From Azolla caroliniana (taxonomy: Eukaryota > Plantae > Polypodiophyta), in the NCBI GenBank assembly GCA_043228905.1, contig JBHGNT010000022.1, positions 8,246,001 to 8,310,000 on the forward strand: 64,000 bases of DNA, written 5' to 3'. The notes under the pieces are model-generated. The model worked only from the letters and a program-made list of their open reading frames with translations. It did not search any database and had not been told where the DNA came from. Shown piece by piece: positions 1 through 12,145 of this stretch (the stretch's first letter is position 1; each line of letters begins with the position of its first letter). The position numbers and the translations under genes were made by a program.

Positions 1-721
1 AAATTGTAGATCAGTTCCCATGGTGGCTCTTTCCCCGATTGTAAATCGATGGGGCAATCATATGGTCGATGGTGAGGAAGTGTATTGGCTCGTACTTTAT
101 CGAATACATCGGCATAATGATGATACTTCTTTGGAAGCTGAACAGGGGACTCCTCTTTAATGGTGTCGGAGGGTTTTAGTGATATTGCGAAGAGAAACAT
201 TTCTTCCTTGTGTCCTTCTTCCCGCAACTGATGTAGTGAAATGGTGGCAATCTTCTGAGCAGATCCTCGGGTTTGTCGACACTGGTTTTCTCTTGTTCTC
301 CAATCTGTGTCTGGGTTATGTAACTCGAACCATGGTAATCCCAAAACGGTGGAATGTTCTGGGATACTAATAATGTTAGATGATACTACACATGCTAAGT
401 TATCTAGGACAATATTAATGGGTTCTGATTCTTCTATGATATTTCCGGAAGCAATAGGACGACCATCAATGACAACTACAGAGGTTGGACATGGAAGTTT
501 TCTAAGAGATATCTGATGAGCTTGGGCAAAATTCCTATCCATAAAGCAAGAATTTGCTCCGGAGTCTAGAAGTGCTAAGACGTGTAGTGGAGGGGTACTT
601 TTAGTACTAACTATTACTTGGGCTACGAACACATTGCTAACTTGCTTAGAGGGAATGGAACCACTAATGGGCTGCACAGATCTAGGGCTGTCCAACCAAA
701 CAGCTCCTATTTTGGCTAGAC

Positions 722-1819
722 TTAGTCGTTTAACTCTTCTTCTAACTGACTAAGGACATCAAATTTGTTCGCTAGATCTAGGCTATTAGTACTATTAGTA
801 CTATCAAATATCCCTACTGTAATAGGCTCGGGTTTAGTACAATTAGAACTAGCAACTATTTGGTTTACCTGCCTTCTTGGCCTATGGGGACAATTTATTG
901 CAATGTGTCCTGGTCCACCGCAGTAGAGACATAGTCGATTTGTTCGGCGACGCTGCTTTTCTTCTTCGGATAATGGTCCTCGACGACGTGTAGTGTCAAT
1001 CTCCATCAGAGTCAGAGTATTCACTTGAGGCACATTATAGTACTCCTTGGGTAAAGGTTTTGCTACCATTGAGGCGTAGGTGGGCTCTGATCTTGCCCTC
1101 GGCATCTGTAGCTGTCGTTTTGAACGTCGCTCAAAGAGGCGGTTATCACATCTTACCGCGTGACTGATTGCTTCTGTTAAGGACTTTGGCTCTTCAAGGA
1201 AAGTCAAGAGTAAATCCTTGACATCATTACGTAAACCATAACGAAATTGCTCCATCAATGCTTGATCATCCCAAGGGATGTCTGCGGCGAGTAGACGGAA
1301 ATCTGCAGCGTATGCAGAGGCTGGACGGTCTCCTTGGCGTAATCGCCAGATTTTGTTGATTGCGGTCCTTATGCTGTCAGTATCCGCAAAGCATGCTTTA
1401 AACTCACCTATAAACTCTTCAAAGTTGTTGAGTAATGGAGACTCCTTTTCCAATAGTGGAGCGAACCATGCCAACGCTGAGCCACTTAACAGCGTCCCTA
1501 CTAAACCCACTCGTGATGCATCGGTAGGATATCGGGAAGGATGCATTTGAATAACTAATCATACCTGATTAAGGAACCCTCTAAACTGCAATTGTGTTCC
1601 ATCGAACTTCATGGGAAAGCCAATCTTGGGTTCCTTATGAATCCCTTGTGTTCCGGGCCCTTGTTGTTGCATCGCTACGATGGTTGCTTCGAGTTGTTGC
1701 ATGCGTAATGCAAGTTCCCCATGTTGTTGTTGCATTTGCTGCTTTTCTAATGAGATTTGTTGAAGATCCCCCAGCAACCGTTGATTTTCTTGTTCCAAAG
1801 CAAGGAACTTCTCTTTCAA
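722..1819 (-). pseudogene. gag: Chromovirus gag (PEG10/sushi-like capsid plus CCHC zinc knuckle), one in-frame stop
   Basis: ORFs 1559-1819 and 722-1546: KFDGTQLQFRGFLNQ, LRQG..YAADFR, MEID, CX2CX4HX4C. Confidence 0.9.
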
Positions 1820-1944
1820 GCATTGAAACTCCGAGCTAACAGATTGATATTCCTAAGCGCTAACTGTGGCCATGGGATGAAAAGAAAAGAGAAATAAGAG
1901 ATTAGTATGAAGGGAGAGAGACAGAAGGGAAAATTGGTTCAAAC

Positions 1945-2405
1945 TATCAGGAATAGTACTAAACAGAGATAGGATTAGTACTAAACAGAGAGAGAATTAG
2001 TACTAGAGAAGGGAAGTACTATTAGAACTAAGGGGACGGGACTACGTAAGACTCCCGAGAGAGGAAGAGAGAAGAGGAGAGAGAGAGAGAGATAGCGAGG
2101 ACGAGAGATGATGATAACAGATTATATATTATAAGAAGAGTAAGTACAAAAAGGGCTATGAGGCTAAAGACTGGCGTTGAACCAATTTGGTTCAACATAA
2201 TGCCTAGTGCCCTCTTTTATAGTGTTCTCAAGAGTAATCCTCAAGCTTCTAGAATGTTCCAGAGAAATCTGGAATATACATTAATTTCCTATAATAAAAT
2301 GTAAATGAAAATAATATCTTACGTATTACAATAGATGAAATAATGGTCAAGAGCTCGACCCATATAACCTAAGGTCATGGGTTCAAGTCTTGCCATATCA
2401 TGACA
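1945..2405 (-). repeat. 5' LTR of chromovirus copy 1
   Basis: On the minus strand starts TGTCATGATATGGCAAG and ends TATTCCTGATA; matches the LTRs at 19301 and 27443. Confidence 0.88.
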
Positions 2406-3417
2406 CTGTTTGTTTGGGCAACTCCACGCTTTGGGGATCATCAAGGTTAGCGGGATGTGATTCTAGTGTTATTGCGATGAGGTCCTCAGACTTCAGTCCA
2501 TCTCCTATTTGGAAGGAGAGGATGTGATTGTTGGGTGACAGGAGACATTCGCTTATGCGACACCAATCTAAACCAAGGAGGCATTGTGTGTACATCACTT
2601 TGGGCGGGAGTACCCGAACTAGGATTGAGTGCGCGTTGTATTCTGTCTTGATGCTACACACGAAAGCTCCTAGGCAACATGATGTGGACCCATCGAAGCC
2701 ACGGACGTTATCATTGCTCACTTCAAGGTCTGGGCAACCTAGACGTCTCCATGTTTCGATGGAGAAAAGGGTTAGTGATGCTCCTGTGTCGATTACCGCT
2801 GTCAAAGGTATGTCGTCGACGCAGCATCGTAGTTGTATTGTTCCGTCATTAGACTTGGCCGCCTTAGCCATGGCTATTGGATGGGTGTGTCCTTGTCCCT
2901 TCAATTTCTCTTGCGTATTGCGCAGGTCGGTTTCGAGCCGGGCCATTCGGCCTTCGGAGGCCTTAAGTTTGGCTTCTACCTCTCGTTGCGGAGCCGTGAG
3001 TAAAACCTCGAGTGTGAGGGGTCCATAGTAACGTTTGAGCTTGCTCCCATTGATGAATCCGGGGATGTCAAAACCTTCGAGCGTGCATAGGCGACATGCT
3101 CTTGTCTTGGTAATCTCTGAAACCACATACGGGCCTTCACCCTGTAACTTAAGCTTCTTTTTGTGTCGTTGAGAGGAGAACTTGAGGGCCATGTCGCCTT
3201 CAACGAGGTCTTTGTTCTTGACTTTATTGTCGTGCCACACCTTTCTATTGGCTTTCTCTGCCAAGAGTGCCTGGAATGCGAGAAGGCGAGTTTCTGTCAG
3301 CCGTTCTAGGCTCTCTAGACGTGACGGGAGGGGGTCCCTGTCCCATCGTTCTTGTACGGCAATCCTGAGGCTGGGAACCAGGAACTCGATGGGTAATGTT
3401 GCTTCTTGCCCGTGCAC
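2406..3417 (-). CDS. Integrase C-terminus, coiled coil and a second retropepsin-like aspartic protease in one frame
   Basis: ORF 2398-3417: GPYVV..NGSKLKRYY, then AVIDTGASLTLFS..VRGFDGS..CLLGLDW. Confidence 0.8.
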
Positions 3418-5523
3418 TAGTTTGAATGGTGTGTGGCGAGTTGCGATTTTGTAGGAAGTACGGAAAGCCCATAATGCTGCTTGGAGTTTGGTGCTCTAAT
3501 CAGACCGTGAGGTGGTGATTATCTTTGTGAGCACTACACATAACACCTTATTCGTGCTTTCCGCTTGTCCGTTGCATCGAGGGTAATAAGGAGAATTTTG
3601 CGGTGTGTCACCATAAATTCTCCTAGTAAATGTGCTATCACTTCATTGAGGAAATGTGAGCCTTGGTCACTAATGATTTCGAGCGGACATCCAAACCATA
3701 TAGGAATTTGGTGGTACTACGCGCGTCGGCGTTAACACAAGCTTTAGCTTCGACCCACTTGGTAGCGTAGTTGGTGGCGTAGTCGGTGGTGGTTATTATG
3801 TATCGGTTGAGGTTGGAAGCTGGGCTGATTGGGCCGATAAAGTCGATACCCCATTTCTCGAATGGTTGCCATGCCACCACCGAGCTTAACGTATTGAAAT
3901 CCGCTTTTAGTGGGTGTTTGAAACGTTGGCACTCGTCACAACGGCGTACATACCTTGAACATGGTCTTTTCCTTTTCTCACCATTACCTTGAAGTCGAAC
4001 TCGAGTAACGTTATGATCCATCGTGAGATGCGTCTGGTGGCATGAGTTTTGTTTACTAAGTAGAGTAGGGCTTGATGATCTACAAAAAACGAGAACCAGG
4101 ACGCCAAAAGGTAGTGGCAGAATTTCTTTACGTTGTAAACCATGGCCAAAGCCTCACGTTCCGTCATGGAGTAATTTCGTTCCGCCGCATTCAGTTTGCG
4201 ACTAGCGAAGGTGACCGGTAGGTCGAGTGCCCCTTCACCAGGTTGAGCTACCACTGCACCAATCGCGAAGACGGAAGCGTCGGTGTGAATGTGGAATTTT
4301 TTGGTCCAATCTGGGGGTCGGAGGATGGGGGCCTTAGTTAGGCACTCTTTCAAGAGCTTGAAGGAGTGTGTGCATTCTTCTGTCCACGCGAACTACTTTA
4401 ATAGGGTGTAGAGCAGTCTAGCCTTGTCTGCGAACTTCTTAATAAAGCGTCTATAGTAACCTGCGTATCCTATGAACCCTTGCAATTGTTTCTCATTCGT
4501 GGGGGGTGGCATGTCGAGGATGAGTTTTACCTTTGCCTCATCGGTCGAGATCCCATGCCGGGACACGACGTGCTCTAATATTAATCCGTGCTTGACCTAG
4601 AATTGACACTTGAGTGGGTTGAGAGAGAGTTGATAGGTCCTACATTTTTCGAATGTCAAACAGAGTAGTGTCAGGTGGTCATGCCATTTTGAATGGCAGC
4701 ATAAGTCATCAACATAAGACTCCACCCCTTGTCGTAACCTTGCTGCGAAGATATGGTCTGCCGCTCTTTGGTAGGTGCTCAAGGCACTCCGTGAGTCTAG
4801 AAGGCATCTGTTTATATGCGAACGTACCAAATTCGGTGGTGAAGGTTGTCTTATGTTGATCCTCAGGGACCACAGAGATTTGGTTGTACCCGGAGAACCC
4901 GTCGATGAAGCTATAAGATTCTGTTCCCGTGATTCTTTCGAGTAGATGCTCGATGTAGGGTACTAGGCAGTTGTCCTTGATAGTGGATTCGTTAACTTGG
5001 CGGTAGTCGACACATATGCGGATTTGGCCGTTTTCCTTCAGGACGACTACAATTGGGGAGAACCAAGTAGTTCGTTCGATCTGATAGATAATGCCTGCAG
5101 CCAACATTTTGTTGATTTCAGCTTTACTTGTTGGGCGTAGTTAGGGTTCATTGGGCGTGGCCTTTGCTGAATTGGGCGGGCATCGGCTCGCATGGGGATA
5201 CTATGGGTGATGACCTCGGCTGGGACTCCCTTCATGTCGATGTACGACCATGCAAACATGTCGCTAAATTCCGTGAGGAGAGTGATCAAGGACGTCTCCT
5301 CGTCGGACTCGATATCTGCGGCTATGAATACCGATTTGGAGTCTGTCCCTTTCCCGAGGTTGACTTCTTTCACCCTTGCCGGTCCATCATAGATTTCTCC
5401 TAGGCCTTGGGGGGTTGCGTTGTGGTCTTTTACAAGCCACGACCCTATTCTCTTGTTCATAGAGTTTGAAATTCTCTGGGAAGTCCACTTCCGTCGAAGT
5501 CTTCTAAGTGGTCGTGGCATCAC
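3418..5523 (-). pseudogene. pol: RT, RNase H and integrase core of the non-chromovirus gypsy, frameshifted
   Basis: Fragmented ORFs 5047-5523, 4709-5107, 4597-4830, 3907-4353 and 3638-4021 carrying RT/RH/INT motifs. Confidence 0.9.
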
Positions 5524-6766
5524 CTGGACGTGTGACTCGTTGTACCAGTTCTTCGTCCTTTATGTCTACTTCTTTCTGCCGGGGTCCGAGGGTGGTGATG
5601 TTGAAGAAAGATATTGTGTCTCCGTCCTCTCCGCAACACTTTGTACCGATAGGGTACATTGCGTTGGTAGTGACGAGACCGTGTGCCCAATTCATCTCTG
5701 ACGTCTCGGAAGCGACGGATTGGCCGTCTCTCTCACGTACGTTCCCCTCTTTGGAAGTGGCGAGTCTTTGGGGGAATGGTTGGCCTCTGGTCAAGAGTTG
5801 AACTGTCTTTGTGGGGTTGCACGCTAGGAGGTTGGTCTCGAACTTGGTTGTTTCTGACCAATCATTTACGAGAGGGCTGCCTTCTTGTTCATGCACTTTT
5901 TGTGTGTATGCTTTGATGCGGAAGGTTTTGTTGTCTTTACGCATATAGATTATATCATTCCCGAAATCCATTACTAGGAGGCTTATACGTAGGAATGGTC
6001 TTCCTAGTAAGCACTCGTAGGCCACATGGTTGGATGATCTTGTGACGACGAAGGTGAGATTGAACTCCACTCCGTGGATAGTGAAGTGATGTTCAGGGAT
6101 CATGCCTTCTAGCCTTTGGATGGACCCATCTGCCATTTGTAGTTTGACATCTGAAGGAAGCATTTTTGGGCTCCCCCAGTTACACCAACATTCGTAACTG
6201 ACGATACTTACCCCTGCTCTGGTGTCAATGATTGCGTCACACGTCTTACCATTGACGCAAACTGGTAAGGTGAAACTAGTATCGTCACTCTCGAAGTGAG
6301 CTTCGTGGACATCGACTGGCAGTCCTTCGGGTTGTTTGAGGACTGTGGACGTATGAGGAGTGTGGGTGTGTATCCTTTTGCCATACCCTGCCGATAGGCC
6401 ACCATTGAGGCGTCGGAGGATGTCATGCCATGGTTGAATGTCGAGTTTGAGTAGTTCTTCGAGCGTGAACTCTATTTCCTTGGCGAGTAGAGGTCGTAGT
6501 AGGGGGTTGTCCGCGACGAAGGTGCCAGTGTAGCTCTGCACTTCGCGTAATGTGAGTCGCAATCTTAAATTTAAGATTTTTTGGAGTAGGGTTGTGTTCA
6601 CCTCTTTGATCAGGGTAGGATGGCAAGTGGGGGTGTCGGTGTGTGTGACGACGTGGGGAGGTGAGGGGTTTAACCATTCTTCTAGTTGGTCGAAGTTTAA
6701 GCTTGGGAGTCTAAGTGATTTTTCGAACTGTTCGTGTCGTATGAGCTTGATGTATTCTTCTACCAA
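5504..6766 (-). pseudogene. Canonical gypsy aspartic protease region (active site DTG changed to DTR)
   Basis: CDAIIDTRAGVSIVS..LQMADGS..CLLGRPFL. Confidence 0.85.
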
Positions 6767-6961
6767 TTGTTTCTCAGCTACTAGGTATGCCGCAAGGTGT
6801 GCCGGTAGTTCTTGATTCGGATTGACAAGTAATGTTTCTATGTCTCCCTCCGGTTCTTGATCTTGTTTTGAGGTCTGCGTGGAATTATTCTTTCTATATT
6901 TTCATCTCTTACGTGTGGTCGCGGGGAAACCTTGATCTTGGTAGTTTAAATTGTGCGCTAC

Positions 6962-9045
6962 TCATTGGGCCCGTCTGATGACATTGGCACCGATCGTGGA
7001 TGGTACAATGGACAACAGATTTGTGCCGATCCTTTTCTTCTTTTCCGGGCAATCAGGTAGTAAGTGTTCTTTACCGCACCCTAGGCATGATGTTTCTCTT
7101 TGGAACCATTCAATAAGGTCCTGCGACTGTTGGGTGAGACCTTGCGCTGGTGGTTGTGGGTGCGTGTCGAGTGGGAGGCGTCGTGGTTGTTGGGCCATCT
7201 GATTGTAGTATTCATGTTTGGTTGGGCACTCACTAACCATATGTGGGCCTTGGCAGTTGAAACATTTCAATTCTGACCTTCTTAGACCATTGTTGTTGCG
7301 GTATCCCATTGAGGGTCCACGTTGTTCCCCTCTCAGGACGTACACTTGTATTTGGTCACCTTCGAAGTCCATGAAGTGGGACAACACCTCTTCTTCAATG
7401 CCATACTCCCGGTACGAGTTTTCATATTCGGGGGTGCTCGCCCCGACCTGGGTTTGGTTATTTGTGGTATATTCCAGTTCGGCCAGGCAAGCGCCGATGC
7501 GCGGTAGTTGGGGTTGTTGAGGGAGTATCGTTGGCAGTGGTGGGCGGCTAAGTGGTGGAGGTGAGCGTTGGTGTTCCACCATTGGCGTTTGGCCGTACCT
7601 TCCAGTGGGGGCTTGCCAGCAGTTCTCTTGCATATGCATCACAAAAGCTTTGCACCACTTACAATATTGCGGTCGTCGTTGATGGAGGAGGGGACACTCA
7701 TGTCCTGTGTGGTGGCTGTGGCATTCCGTGCACCTTACATTTTTTTGTTGGGCGTATGCTTGGGGTCTTTCTATATGGGGTGTTCGCGGTGGTGTGGGTA
7801 CAGTAGGGGTGGGTTCTGAAGATTTCTCGTGGTTGTTCGTAGGTGCTTGAGTGGGTATCTGTAACCCGCTCATTGAATCTTCAAAGGTCATCAATATTGT
7901 GCAGGCTTCAACGAACGATCGACACATCCTGGCAATCAAGAAATTTTGGAGTGTCGGATCGAACAACCCGTTAATGAAACGGCTCGTCAACTTGTCATCC
8001 GACATCTTGTCGCTCGGGGTCCAACGATGATGTAGGCTTTTCGTGCAACATACCTAGTCCCTGACCGTTTCGTTCGCTTCTTGCCTGAGGGTGAAAAGTT
8101 GGTCAATTGGGTTCCATTTATTCCCTCGGCGAGCAAAGTTTATCAAGAAATCTTCGATGACATACTCGAAATCGGCAGCGATGTCTTCATTCAAGGTTTG
8201 AAACTAAATTCCGGCTTGGTCATCAAGTGTAAGTCCAAACGCGGCTACCTTGGTGATCTTGATGAGGGGTTCATAAGCGCGACAAATCTGTTTGAACCTC
8301 TCGACATGAACATAGGCATCGCCGAAACCGAGGAAACGGGGTACTAGTTTAGAAATGGTAGCACTCTTCTCACTGTCATTTATGAGGTTTCTCAGATGGT
8401 TTGTGCGTGATCGCTCTTTTTCCATCAATGCTACAAGAGTTTGGATGGATTGTAGCGCTAGTGCGAGTTCGGCGTTTGGAGGTGTAGGGGTAGCTTGGTC
8501 AGGTGTGGGGTTGTGCCCATGCGTGGTGGTGTCGGGTGTCGTGTGTGGCCTTCGTTCGGGCTGTCGCCCGTTGTGCTCAAATGTGTTACGGGGCTATACT
8601 CTTGACCTCGGCGGGGCATGTGCGATGATGTTTCTAGGAGGTGAAGTTTTTGTTGCACTCGTGTGAATCTAACCTTCCTTTCTGCCAAAGCGGCTTCGAT
8701 ATCTCGAGTGATGCTTTCCGGTTGTCCTCCTTTCGCAAGTTGTACCGTCCATAGATTTATTTCGTGTTCTATCACCCGTAACTCTTGCTCTGCGTCTCGT
8801 ATGTGTTGCTCTACACTGAGTGGGTCTGCCATTGAGATCTCCTGTAGTGGGGGTGTGTTGAGAGGTGCTTTAGTTCCTGGGCTCAATGGGAGGTACATGT
8901 TTGGTAGCATCCCTCGAGTTAGCCACCCTCCGTGGTACCGAGTCGGGTTAGATGGGATGGCATCGTGGGTTTGGTTGGTTTGGGTGGACTCCTCCTGGCG
9001 TGCGGGGCGGGTTTTGAACATCTCTATCCATGAGGATTCGGCCAT
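6962..9045 (-). pseudogene. gag: Gag of the non-chromovirus gypsy with four zinc knuckles; the upstream 195-aa ORF is probably its frameshifted N-terminus
   Basis: PRFLGFGDAYVHVERF capsid motif; four CCHC-type motifs in ORF 6962-8005. Confidence 0.75.
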
Positions 9046-9067
9046 GTTTTCCAGTCAAGCTTTTATA

Positions 9068-9236
9068 GGTTCGTCGAAGGATGAATCTTCATCGAAGGTT
9101 GAATCTTCGTCGAAGGATGAATCTTCGTCAAAGGTTGAATCTTTGTCAAAGGATGAATCTTCGTCAAAGTTTGAATCTTCATCAAAGGAAGAATCTTTGT
9201 CGAAGGTTGAATCTTCATCGAAGGATGTTCTTTCGA
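9068..9236. repeat. 18-bp tandem repeat (about 9 units, TCGAAGGWTGAATCTTCR) in the gypsy 5' leader
   Basis: Visible periodicity; translates as SSKDES/SSKVES repeats. Confidence 0.9.
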
Positions 9237-9337
9237 CGAACGTTGTGTGGGAAATTCAAAGTTTTTGGCGCCAACGGTCGTTTCGTGACCCCTGGGATGA
9301 TCCTAAGCCGCGAGACTCGCAGTGGTTACGCTTGCCC

Positions 9338-9950
9338 TGTAACGGCTCAATCTCCACAATGTTTAGTGTTAACCGAACGAATAAACAAAAAATCGACTTA
9401 ATTAAACTATGAAATAGTGAGAAAAAACAGAAAATCGACTTAATTAAACTATGAAATAGTGAGGAAAAACAGAAAATCAACTTAATTGAACTATGAAATA
9501 ATGAGGAAAAACTTAACGATTAGTAAATGATTAAGCACGATATCTCTCTCACTCTCTCAAGCTTTCACTCATAAACAATAGGTTAATAGATATAGACAAT
9601 AAGAAGGAAGAGTATGTTTATTAACCCTCTTTGCTAAGTGGTCTAGCACCAACAAGGAGAGAGATTAGTGTTCTCTAACTAAACACCTCACTAATCTCTC
9701 TTAAGCTCAAAGGTTACAAGAAGGAGGAGAGGAAGCTCTAGCTCTAATCAATAGGAGATCTTTACAAATGGGAGAACCCCCACAAAACCACTACTATGTG
9801 GTTTATATAGCTTTCACGTTTAGGCTATGGGCCTTTCACACTTGGACGTCACTTTGCTTTCTTTTCCTCTTGTTGTTTCCTCTTCGTACTACGTCCTTGT
9901 TGATGCACTCTTATTCATGACTGGTTGTGTTGTTATCCCAACGCTTAACA
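9338..9950 (-). repeat. Probable 5' LTR of the non-chromovirus gypsy, containing three 42-bp tandem repeats (about 9389-9515)
   Basis: TG..CA ends (TGTAAC/CTTAACA), minus-strand TATA near 9805 and AATAAA near 9617; no clear tRNA PBS found. Confidence 0.55.
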
Positions 9951-12145
9951 CATATGCATACACACACACATACACACATACACATATGTACATTCATACA
10001 TGGACATACATACACATACATGACATATGCATATATGCATACACATATGTACATTCGTACATGAATGTTTGAATGTTATGTTTAGTATGTATGTATGTAT
10101 GTATGTATGTATGTATGTATGTATGTATGTATGTATGTGCATGTAATGTATGCATGTATGAATGAATGAATATATATATGTAATGTATGCATAAAATATG
10201 TATGCTTGCATGAATAAACATGAATGAATGGATATATGAATGTACATATGTGTATATATGTAATATGTAATGTATGTGTATGCATATATGTGTGTGGATC
10301 TTTGTTTGTAATATGTATGTATGTGTATGTAAAATATATATGTGAGGGGTATGAATGTTTAAGTTAAATTATAAAAGTGAAAACATTCTAAAGAAAAAAT
10401 TTAAAAAAATGTGGGAGAGGGGTATGAGTGAGAATAGGAAAAAATGGGTAAGGGGTAGGGCTAGAAATAGGAGAAAGTAGAGGAGGGGTAGGGCTGAAAA
10501 TAGGAGAAAGTTGGGGAAGGGTAGGGCTTAGAATATAAAGATTTTTACAAGGGTTGAGTACATAAGCCGGTGACAAATATAACACCCTGTTATGCGATAG
10601 AGTGTAGGTTTGGAGATACAACATGAATAAAAATGAAATACAAAATCCCGGCTACCATGTGCCATCTTGGACATATGAATTACAAGAGAGATAAAGAGAT
10701 ATAAAATGGAATGCATCGCTACTAAATGAAGTCTCATGCTTACGAACAATATATATTATACGTAGTACATACACATACATACATATGACAAACAAACATC
10801 CACACACACATATATGCATACACATACAAATATACATACATTACATATTACATATTACATATATACACATATGTACATTCATATATTCATTCATTCATGT
10901 TTATGTTGGGAGACAGGTCCCTCCGGATGGGAAGGGAGAAGAACAGTGCCAATGAACAAACTCGGCCGAGGCCGAAACCGTATGAGGTGGACCTGGCTAC
11001 GGAGAGCCGGAGGGTACAGACCCGGTTTGAACCGGATGAGGAGTACTCGGCTACGGAGAGCCGGATGATACAGACCCGGTATGAACCGGATGAGGAGTAC
11101 CCAGCTACGGAGAGCCGGATGATGCAGACCCGGTGAAGACCTGATGAGGAGTACCTGGCTACGGAGGGCCGGATTGTGCAGACCCGGTATGAACCGGATG
11201 AGGAGTACCCGGCTACGGAGAGCCGGATGATGAGACATATTCGTAAATATGTTTCTGATAGTCCATCGAGGCTATATTTGTAAATAGCCGAAAAGTCATA
11301 TTAGTATAAATATGACTTAGGGCAAACTTTTAGTTATGGTTGTTGTCATTTCTGTTTTGCACGAGATCAGTGTGTGTAACTGTACATAGAGAGAGAGAAA
11401 GAGAAAAAGAGGTCGTTGCCTCTGTTGTAACCGCCGCCTGTGGCAAAGATCTGTGAGAACGAGGTCGGTGCCTCAGTGAATTCACTGTTGTATATTCTTA
11501 CATAGTGACAGTTTGCAGCCTGTGGGCTGCTGTGGTTTTTCCCTTAGTTTGGGGTTTTCCACGTAAACCTCCTGAGTATCTTTCTCTTCTTCTTGTCCTG
11601 TTTTATTTCTCATTTTCTGTGTATCATTACAAGCTCGGTTGTGGCCGAGCATTGCGCATAAGGAACGATCAGTTCCCGTCAATTTATTCATGCAAGCATG
11701 CATATTTTATGCATACATTATATATATATATATATATACATGCATACATGCATACATTACATGCACATACATACATACATTCATACTAAACATAAGATTC
11801 AAACATTCATGTTCTTTTTTAAATTTAGATTTTTGCCTCCTCCTTTGCTCTACCACCTCTTCTCTCCTCATTGCTATCGTCGCCTCTTCTCCCCTTGTTG
11901 CTTTTGTCCTCGTTTTGCCGCCTCTATTCTCGTTTTGCTACCTCTGTTCTCGTTTTGCTTCCGATGCCGCTGCCGCCACCACTTGCCTTGTCGTGCCGCT
12001 TTTGCTCACCATTATTCTCTGTCGGGGCTGCCACCACTACTCTACAAATATTTTAGAGGTACACATAAGTACAAACATCATACATAAACCAACACATAAA
12101 TTATTAGACATACACACATTCACAGACATACATACATACATACAT

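Follow-up and report, generated by a model that had tools for sequence, protein, structure and literature searches.

A second retropepsin downstream of the integrase in a Ty3/gypsy retrotransposon family of Azolla caroliniana

A Ty3/gypsy retrotransposon family in the genome of Azolla caroliniana encodes a second retropepsin (PR2) behind its integrase, in the same reading frame and separated from the integrase by a coiled-coil-like stretch. Gypsy elements and retroviruses normally have one protease, which precedes the reverse transcriptase (RT). From the single copy in the window, the whole 64,000-nt stretch of DNA analysed here, a sequence-only reading had proposed a two-protease lineage. Our analysis bears this out: PR2 accompanies 73 of 79 family integrases, it is under purifying selection, and the layout recurs in distant elements, in which the triad of PR2 is kept.

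In the window copy the integrase end, the coiled coil and PR2 share one stop-free stretch of 365 codons (2398-3495, minus strand), as the in-frame fusion noticed earlier implied. On the same strand the stretch contains the end of the integrase (GPY at 3127-3135, NGSKLKRYY at 3025-3051) and the motifs of PR2, namely the DTG (2782-2790), the flap (2686-2706) and LLGLDW (2563-2580). Neither an LTR nor gag was found between integrase and PR2 by six-frame translation and comparison of copies, in agreement with the sequence-only reading. The features of the window copy are the following.

9511-9951, minus strand: 5' LTR of the host element, the first 441 of approx. 605 nt, 91-94% identical to both LTRs of other copies
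6950-9050 (approximate), minus strand: gag region with stops and frameshifts, from six-frame translation; Retrotrans_gag is present in the matching ORF of copy L037
5927-6280, minus strand: PR1, the canonical protease before RT; DTR here, DTG in 18 of 29 aligned copies
3950-5300 (approximate), minus strand: RT and RNase H (RH), broken, assigned by Pfam on the RT-RH-INT ORF of copy L039; no additional RNase H
3025-3940, minus strand: integrase (INT) core and C-terminal part with GPY; the N-terminal part is deleted in the window copy
2899-3024, minus strand: coiled-coil-like helix between INT and PR2, helix 2-38 in the model of copy L016 with a pLDDT of approx. 90; net dN/dS 0.05
2485-2844, minus strand: PR2, the second retropepsin, supported by Pfam, fold match and a net dN/dS of 0.28
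2406-2484, minus strand: first part of the neutral linker that leads to the AQG[WY] motif, interrupted here by the nested insertion, with the target duplication at 2406-2410
1-2405, minus strand: chromovirus nested in the host element, with its 5' LTR (from 2405), gag and a protease; it has no relation to PR2 and displaces the rest of the host element beyond the window

The suggested HMM comparison identified PR2 as a protease of the expected type. Residues 224-312 matched Pfam gag-asp_proteas with 32.8 bits (cut-off 28.2) and Asp_protease_2 with 25.4 bits (cut-off 24.3). According to Pfam, models and fold searches PR2 has the hallmarks of a retropepsin, that is the D[TS]G triad, the flap, the hydrophobic-hydrophobic-Gly motif and a single-lobe fold. 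PR1 was located upstream of RT with its DTR at 6218-6226, as had been described, and passed the same two Pfam cut-offs. The window copy itself is dead: gag, RT and INT hold stops and frameshifts, approx. 410 nt between RH and INT are lost, and the 5' LTR end and the primer site are also absent. The host element's 5' leader contains an 18-nt tandem array (window 9052-9249). The INT-PR2 frame is terminated by the LTR of the nested chromovirus, from 2405. The second LTR of this complete chromovirus was found outside the window, in L048, with 96.7% identity over 457 nt, and a 5-bp duplication borders the insertion. Thus the continuation could be recovered, as had been proposed; the host element resumes directly behind the insertion.

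The part that the window copy has lost, read in other copies, consists of the neutral linker and one or two AQG[WY] motifs. A further downstream domain had been predicted beyond the chromovirus. A tail does exist there. It is mostly disordered and carries a short unnamed motif, apparently no further enzyme or folded domain. The motif was found in 29 of 30 close copies, twice in 27 of them. Pfam names nothing for it, and an atlas search with the motif gave no usable match. Its pLDDT was approx. 70-80 in the model of L016 and below 50 in that of the distant homologue P0012, the motif being part of a longer modelled chain in both. Constraint on the motif was weak, with a net dN/dS of 0.38 [0.14-0.99], and 0.45 [0.14-1.45] on a matched set. 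We discarded the idea of an Argonaute-binding GW motif in the tail, since the sequence is AQGY in distant members.

Independent copies were detected with a DNA query spanning the INT-PR2 junction: the best 40 of 130 candidates were scored, and all 40 matched over essentially the whole query with 86-92% identity. As the window itself is among them, 39 other copies span the junction. This query selects for PR2, and we therefore also ran a query with the integrase core only. The best 150 of 18,563 candidates were scored, and integrases with at least 65% identity were assigned to the family; beyond these the identity dropped to 52-53%. The sequence-only reading had stated that the lineage would fall if other members ended after the integrase. 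They do not: the 73 integrases with PR2 downstream comprise 28 of 30 fetched loci, in which PR2 was aligned, and 45 of the 49 others, for which coordinates were compared with PR2 matches. The six integrases without PR2 belong to damaged copies, shortened or internally deleted, whose break points all differ. The region from GPY to PR2 was in one frame in 23 of 30 close copies and free of stops in 7. Two of the six copies without PR2, L181 and L182, have different deletions that join integrase or coil to the tail motif, and in one other copy (L111) the segment from the coil to the middle of PR2 is duplicated in tandem.

The host element has the Ty3/gypsy order PR-RT-RH-INT. LTRs of full-length copies are approx. 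605 nt long with TG..CA ends; five pairs showed 96-98% identity, and four of the five had 5-bp target duplications. The primer site, present in other copies, is complementary to the 3' end of tRNA-Asp genes of the same genome, a primer type linked to Athila. Large tandem arrays also match this tRNA-Asp 3' end (155 pattern matches; C3:15.32 Mb, C8:16.32 Mb, C10:5.15 Mb, C11:6.9 and 14.8 Mb, C15:10.2 Mb), and at L146 seven tRNA-Asp genes and one tRNA-Thr gene lie within 3 kb. Pfam detected no chromodomain family after the integrase in family copies, in P0002 or in the distant elements P0076 and P0081, which sets the family apart from chromoviruses. An additional RNase H (aRH) was not found either, as L039, P0076 and P0081 matched RT_RNaseH families only (Pfam). 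The acidic residues of the native RNase H are visible, unlike in the aRH-bearing Tat elements, which combine aRH with a decayed native RNase H. The long 3' region of full-length copies holds extra ORFs in sense orientation, for which Pfam gave no convincing match. In L038 (2065-5163) a product of approx. 700 aa, partly proline-rich and with a long coil, is followed by one of approx. 270 aa; matching parts are conserved in L032, L040, L044, L045 and L050.

These features fit a Ty3/gypsy element of the OTA superclade, of Athila or Tat Z1/Z2 type. As described in the portions of PMC6317226 and PMC10508981 that we drew on, Athila and the Tat 'zero' elements Z1/Z2 share with our family the layout LTR-gag-PR-RT-RH-INT without chromodomain or aRH, the intact native RNase H, the 5-bp target duplication and an extended 3' region that carries an extra ORF in sense orientation. 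The tRNA-Asp primer site, of non-Met type as in the OTA superclade, is a further feature in common. To the layout given there the A. caroliniana family adds PR2 and the AQG[WY] tail in frame after the integrase.

To obtain predicted structures, the distant homologue P0012 and the copy L016 were folded as stand-ins for the window copy. Both models showed a retropepsin lobe that is preceded by a long helix and followed by a tail, most of it disordered. The PR2 lobe of L016 matched the Ddi1 protease best (Z 15.2, rmsd 2.5 over 117 residues), and EIAV protease with Z 12.4; the fold search with the P0012 model likewise gave Ddi1 and retroviral proteases as best matches. The likeness to the retroviral-like protease of Ddi1 is one of structure, as the two share only 17% identity, and P0041, which we take to be a Ddi1-like protein from its domain layout, fell outside the PR2 grouping in the tree. 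A dimer model of two copies of coil and PR2 reached a score of 0.60, compared to 0.03 for the best of three controls. Its confident contacts centre on the DTG loop and also involve the C-terminal strands, with a run agreement of at least 48% and a pLDDT of at least 69; the coil made no confident dimer contacts. In the benchmark set 21 of 30 solved homodimers from microbes attained the pass mark, compared to 0 of 23 single chains; for eukaryotes the counts were 17 of 29 and 0 of 30. PR2 is thus predicted to adopt the retropepsin fold and the canonical homodimer, and its pass in the dimer model may reflect mere likeness to retropepsin dimers already solved.

Selection on PR2 was estimated as net dN/dS, the divergence between subfamilies minus that within groups, which removes decay after insertion. 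Rows were counted if one alignment in ungapped frame covered over 80% of the domain; D137 (near-identical to D134), D087 and D129 were left out of the groups. The dN/dS comparison, also suggested by the sequence-only reading, gave a net value for PR2 of 0.28 [0.14-0.52] (26 vs 36 copies), that is purifying selection. Against the 7 most diverged copies it was 0.20 [0.14-0.32], and on a matched set of 17 vs 10 copies 0.29. The linker, with 1.05, served as internal control. Values for the other parts were 0.02 for gag, 0.04 for PR1, 0.03 for RT, 0.05 for INT and 0.05 for the coil. In PR2 47 of 82 rows have the DTG triad, in PR1 18 of 29; of the 35 PR2 rows that depart from it, 25 differ by G>A or C>T changes only. 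From the dN/dS values and the triad pattern we concluded that PR2 is constrained as a protein, several times less than PR1. Selection on the triad speaks indirectly for a putative proteolytic activity of PR2. This faster evolution fits relaxed constraint and a shifting target equally well. The dS between young copies and the NA1 subfamily described below was 0.49 for PR2 and 0.59 for PR1.

With PR2 as query the best 150 of 296 candidates were scored, down to approx. 35% identity. Among 60 diverged loci that were fetched, 40 had the integrase end or the coil upstream of PR2, in 12 PR1 and a spacer led straight to PR2, and 8 were shortened. Two deletion subfamilies without RT, RH and integrase core were recognised, with 12 and 9 copies. 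Their deletions of 2,961 and 2,742 nt are both multiples of three, PR2 is kept in frame, and microhomology is found at both junctions. Splicing as their source was rejected in view of this microhomology and the lack of a GT donor at the NA1 junction. In NA1 (approx. 6-6.8 kb; L081-L084, L087, L121-L124, L126, L128, L129) RT, RH, INT and coil are gone and LTR-gag-PR1-spacer is joined in frame to PR2 and tail. The region of the 3' extra ORFs is missing from most NA1 copies; LTR pairs of NA1 are 97-99% identical, and all 3 copies with both LTR ends aligned have target duplications of their own. In NA2 (L089, L105, L108, L110, L115, L118, L132, L133, L136) the spacer is joined to the last integrase part at an 18-nt microhomology, with coil and PR2 retained. 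The triad of PR2 was intact in only 4 of 12 NA1 copies, compared to 9 of 10 for the same codons of PR1, and G>A changes in CHG context were commoner in the PR2 region of NA1 (0.33 vs 0.06). Because the triad is often lost there, retention of PR2 in NA1 does not prove that it is needed. Selection within NA1 was estimated with an interval of -0.16 to 3.24 and thus no power. Two in-frame deletions would occur by luck in approx. 1 of 9 cases, and the microhomology at the NA2 junction is codon-phased.

The integrase matches of 52-53% identity belong to a sister family in the same genome (L114, L118, L129, L134, L047), which ends after the integrase and has no PR2. It is larger, with open frames of up to approx. 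1,980 aa, and has a 3' extra ORF region of its own. As this family manages such a region without PR2, we regard PR2 as an add-on rather than a core need.

The two-protease layout was also found in distant elements. A HMMER search with the coil-PR2-tail region against 1.84 billion representatives gave 46 matches, some of which read through integrase end, coil, protease and AQGY motif. A word-index protein search with the same region confirmed 0 of 3,827 candidates, and an atlas search with the distant module gave generic protease clusters only, under 0.9. P0076 (3,189 aa) and P0081 (3,185 aa), both of the P0050 cluster, encode Gag-PR1-RT-RH-INT-coil-PR2-AQGY in a single ORF; P0050 covers INT-coil-PR2-tail, and P0051 reads Gag-PR1-PR2-tail without RT, RH and INT. 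The identity of this lineage to the A. caroliniana family is 58% in RT, 55% in INT, 35% in PR1 and 28% in PR2. Between P0076 and P0081 it is 96% in PR1 and 77% in PR2, which is thus the faster-diverging protease there too. All 15 PR2-type rows listed have D[TS]G; across the lineages the flaps of PR1 agree and those of PR2 differ. The zinc-binding (H2C2) region of the integrase is duplicated in P0076, P0081 and P0050 and single in the A. caroliniana family. Queries with P0012 and P0013 on the A. caroliniana genome gave matches of 22-36% identity only, and those recognised in the subset inspected were PR1 or PR2 of the family. Pattern matches were confirmed in 0 of 120 cases in viral contigs and in 2 of 328 in metagenome contigs.

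A phylogeny of both proteases, called for by the sequence-only reading, bears on the origin of PR2. AU tests rejected a clade of the element's own PR1 and PR2 (p 0.029) and a clade of P0076-type PR1 and PR2 (p 0.001); as judged from these alignments, PR2 did not arise by recent duplication of the PR1 of the same element. A weakly supported branch (54/81) of the protease trees separates all PR2-type rows from the rest. In an integrase tree, built without L093 and L100 (rows crossing frameshifts), L033 and L047, the PR2-bearing integrases grouped at 65/80 against the PR2-less sister family, and the rival grouping was not rejected (p 0.18). A single old gain of PR2 would be the simplest reading, though a weakly supported one.

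Among the papers listed in searches of the open-access full-text literature, none was seen to describe an LTR retrotransposon that carries a second aspartic protease behind its integrase; elements of this kind may stand unremarked in the supplements of PMC6317226 and PMC10508981. The additions named for plant gypsy elements in the sections consulted of Neumann et al. 2019 (PMC6317226) and Biryukov and Ustyantsev 2023 (PMC10508981) are aRH, chromodomains and separate extra ORFs only. Wendovirus, an endogenous member of the Caulimoviridae, likewise belongs to the reverse-transcribing elements of plants and has two aspartic proteases that differ from each other, and in the part of the source used here the function of the second is stated to be unknown (PMC9794742). 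It is, however, a pararetrovirus without integrase, and its proteases adjoin in two ORFs before RT (PMC9794742), whereas those of the A. caroliniana family stand on either side of RT-RH-INT in one ORF. Ginger1 DNA transposons, as presented in the excerpts of PMC2836005 that we used, resemble our family in that the GPY/F motif of a gypsy-type integrase is followed C-terminally by a fused protease, for which a role in a host pathway was proposed; unlike it they are animal DNA transposons with OTU or Ulp1 cysteine proteases, and no RT, LTRs or retropepsin. Plant gypsy elements with an extra domain after the integrase include Tat with aRH and chromoviruses with integrase-fused chromodomains, but in the accounts consulted that domain is a nuclease or a chromatin reader and not a protease (PMC13468544, PMC6317226). 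Measured against these sources, the family presents a new architecture inside a known superfamily, with Wendovirus and Ginger1 as nearest analogues.

We consider the chances evenly balanced that PR2 is an accessory enzyme which would be released from the integrase and act on a less fixed target, of the host or associated with the particle. Whatever is encoded within Gag-Pol enters the particle, and it is there that retropepsins form dimers and cleave. Here the single Gag-Pol frame continues past the integrase into coiled coil, PR2 and AQG[WY] tail, which are inherited together; PR2 would probably dimerise and be cut free from the integrase. Ordinary processing appears to be covered by PR1, which is intact and strongly conserved in both lineages, and the target of PR2 is thus likely to be other than the conserved junctions cut by PR1. 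A host or particle-associated protein seems most plausible, to which the tail motif would guide PR2. An accessory role is suggested by the triad kept across deep divergence, the different and variable flap, the faster evolution, the tail motif alongside and the successful sister family without PR2. A bolder form of this proposal, which we hold to be rather unlikely, is that of an old land-plant retrotransposon clade whose dedicated, fast-evolving accessory protease is set free from Gag-Pol and cuts host defence or silencing proteins, as some viruses do, with AQG[WY] as a targeting tag.

PR2 might instead share the processing with PR1, trimming the integrase from its long tail or cutting C-terminal junctions that are poor for PR1. 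Its position in the same frame, adjoining the junction to be cut, the conserved coil and triad and the different flaps of PR1 and PR2 agree with this. Yet self-release alone would be of benefit only with a useful tail, the sister family manages without PR2, and derivatives lacking RT, RH and the INT core have retained PR2 in frame. Fixed internal junctions also predict a constraint like that on PR1, several times stronger than the one found, and we rate this sharing of work as unlikely, though it deserves serious consideration. That PR2 has no target of its own and regulates or backs up PR1, for example as its binding partner or by setting when particles mature, appears improbable to us. Two independent in-frame deletions and P0051 do place PR1 and PR2 in one frame, and NA1 copies carry their own target duplications; but the luck needed for such an in-frame pair is not great, the NA2 deletion lies at codon-phased microhomology, P0051 was detected because it is an ORF, and the triad of PR2 is often lost in NA1.

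A functionless captured protease fragment, or a region kept for an RNA signal, would account for the relaxed rate, the loss of the triad in NA1 and the single copies from which PR2 is deleted. It is hard to reconcile with a dN/dS well below 1, a dS similar to that of the neighbouring parts and a triad kept across lineages at 28% identity; we judge it very improbable, and for the autonomous lineages it is largely refuted already. The window is a nest of retroelements, in which a one-off fusion with the protease of another element could have been suspected. This explanation can practically be dismissed, as it is refuted by the other copies spanning the junction, by PR2 behind nearly all family integrases and by the same layout in unrelated records. 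An accessory enzyme with a role outside standard polyprotein processing is our preferred reading.

A second, differently evolving retropepsin kept behind the integrase offers a natural pair of enzymes in one polyprotein, in which a split in substrate choice can be tested. PR2 is also a concrete candidate for enzymatic counter-defence in plant retrotransposons. Furthermore it can serve as a marker of the clade, in which annotation based on domains would mistake PR2 for a nested insertion.
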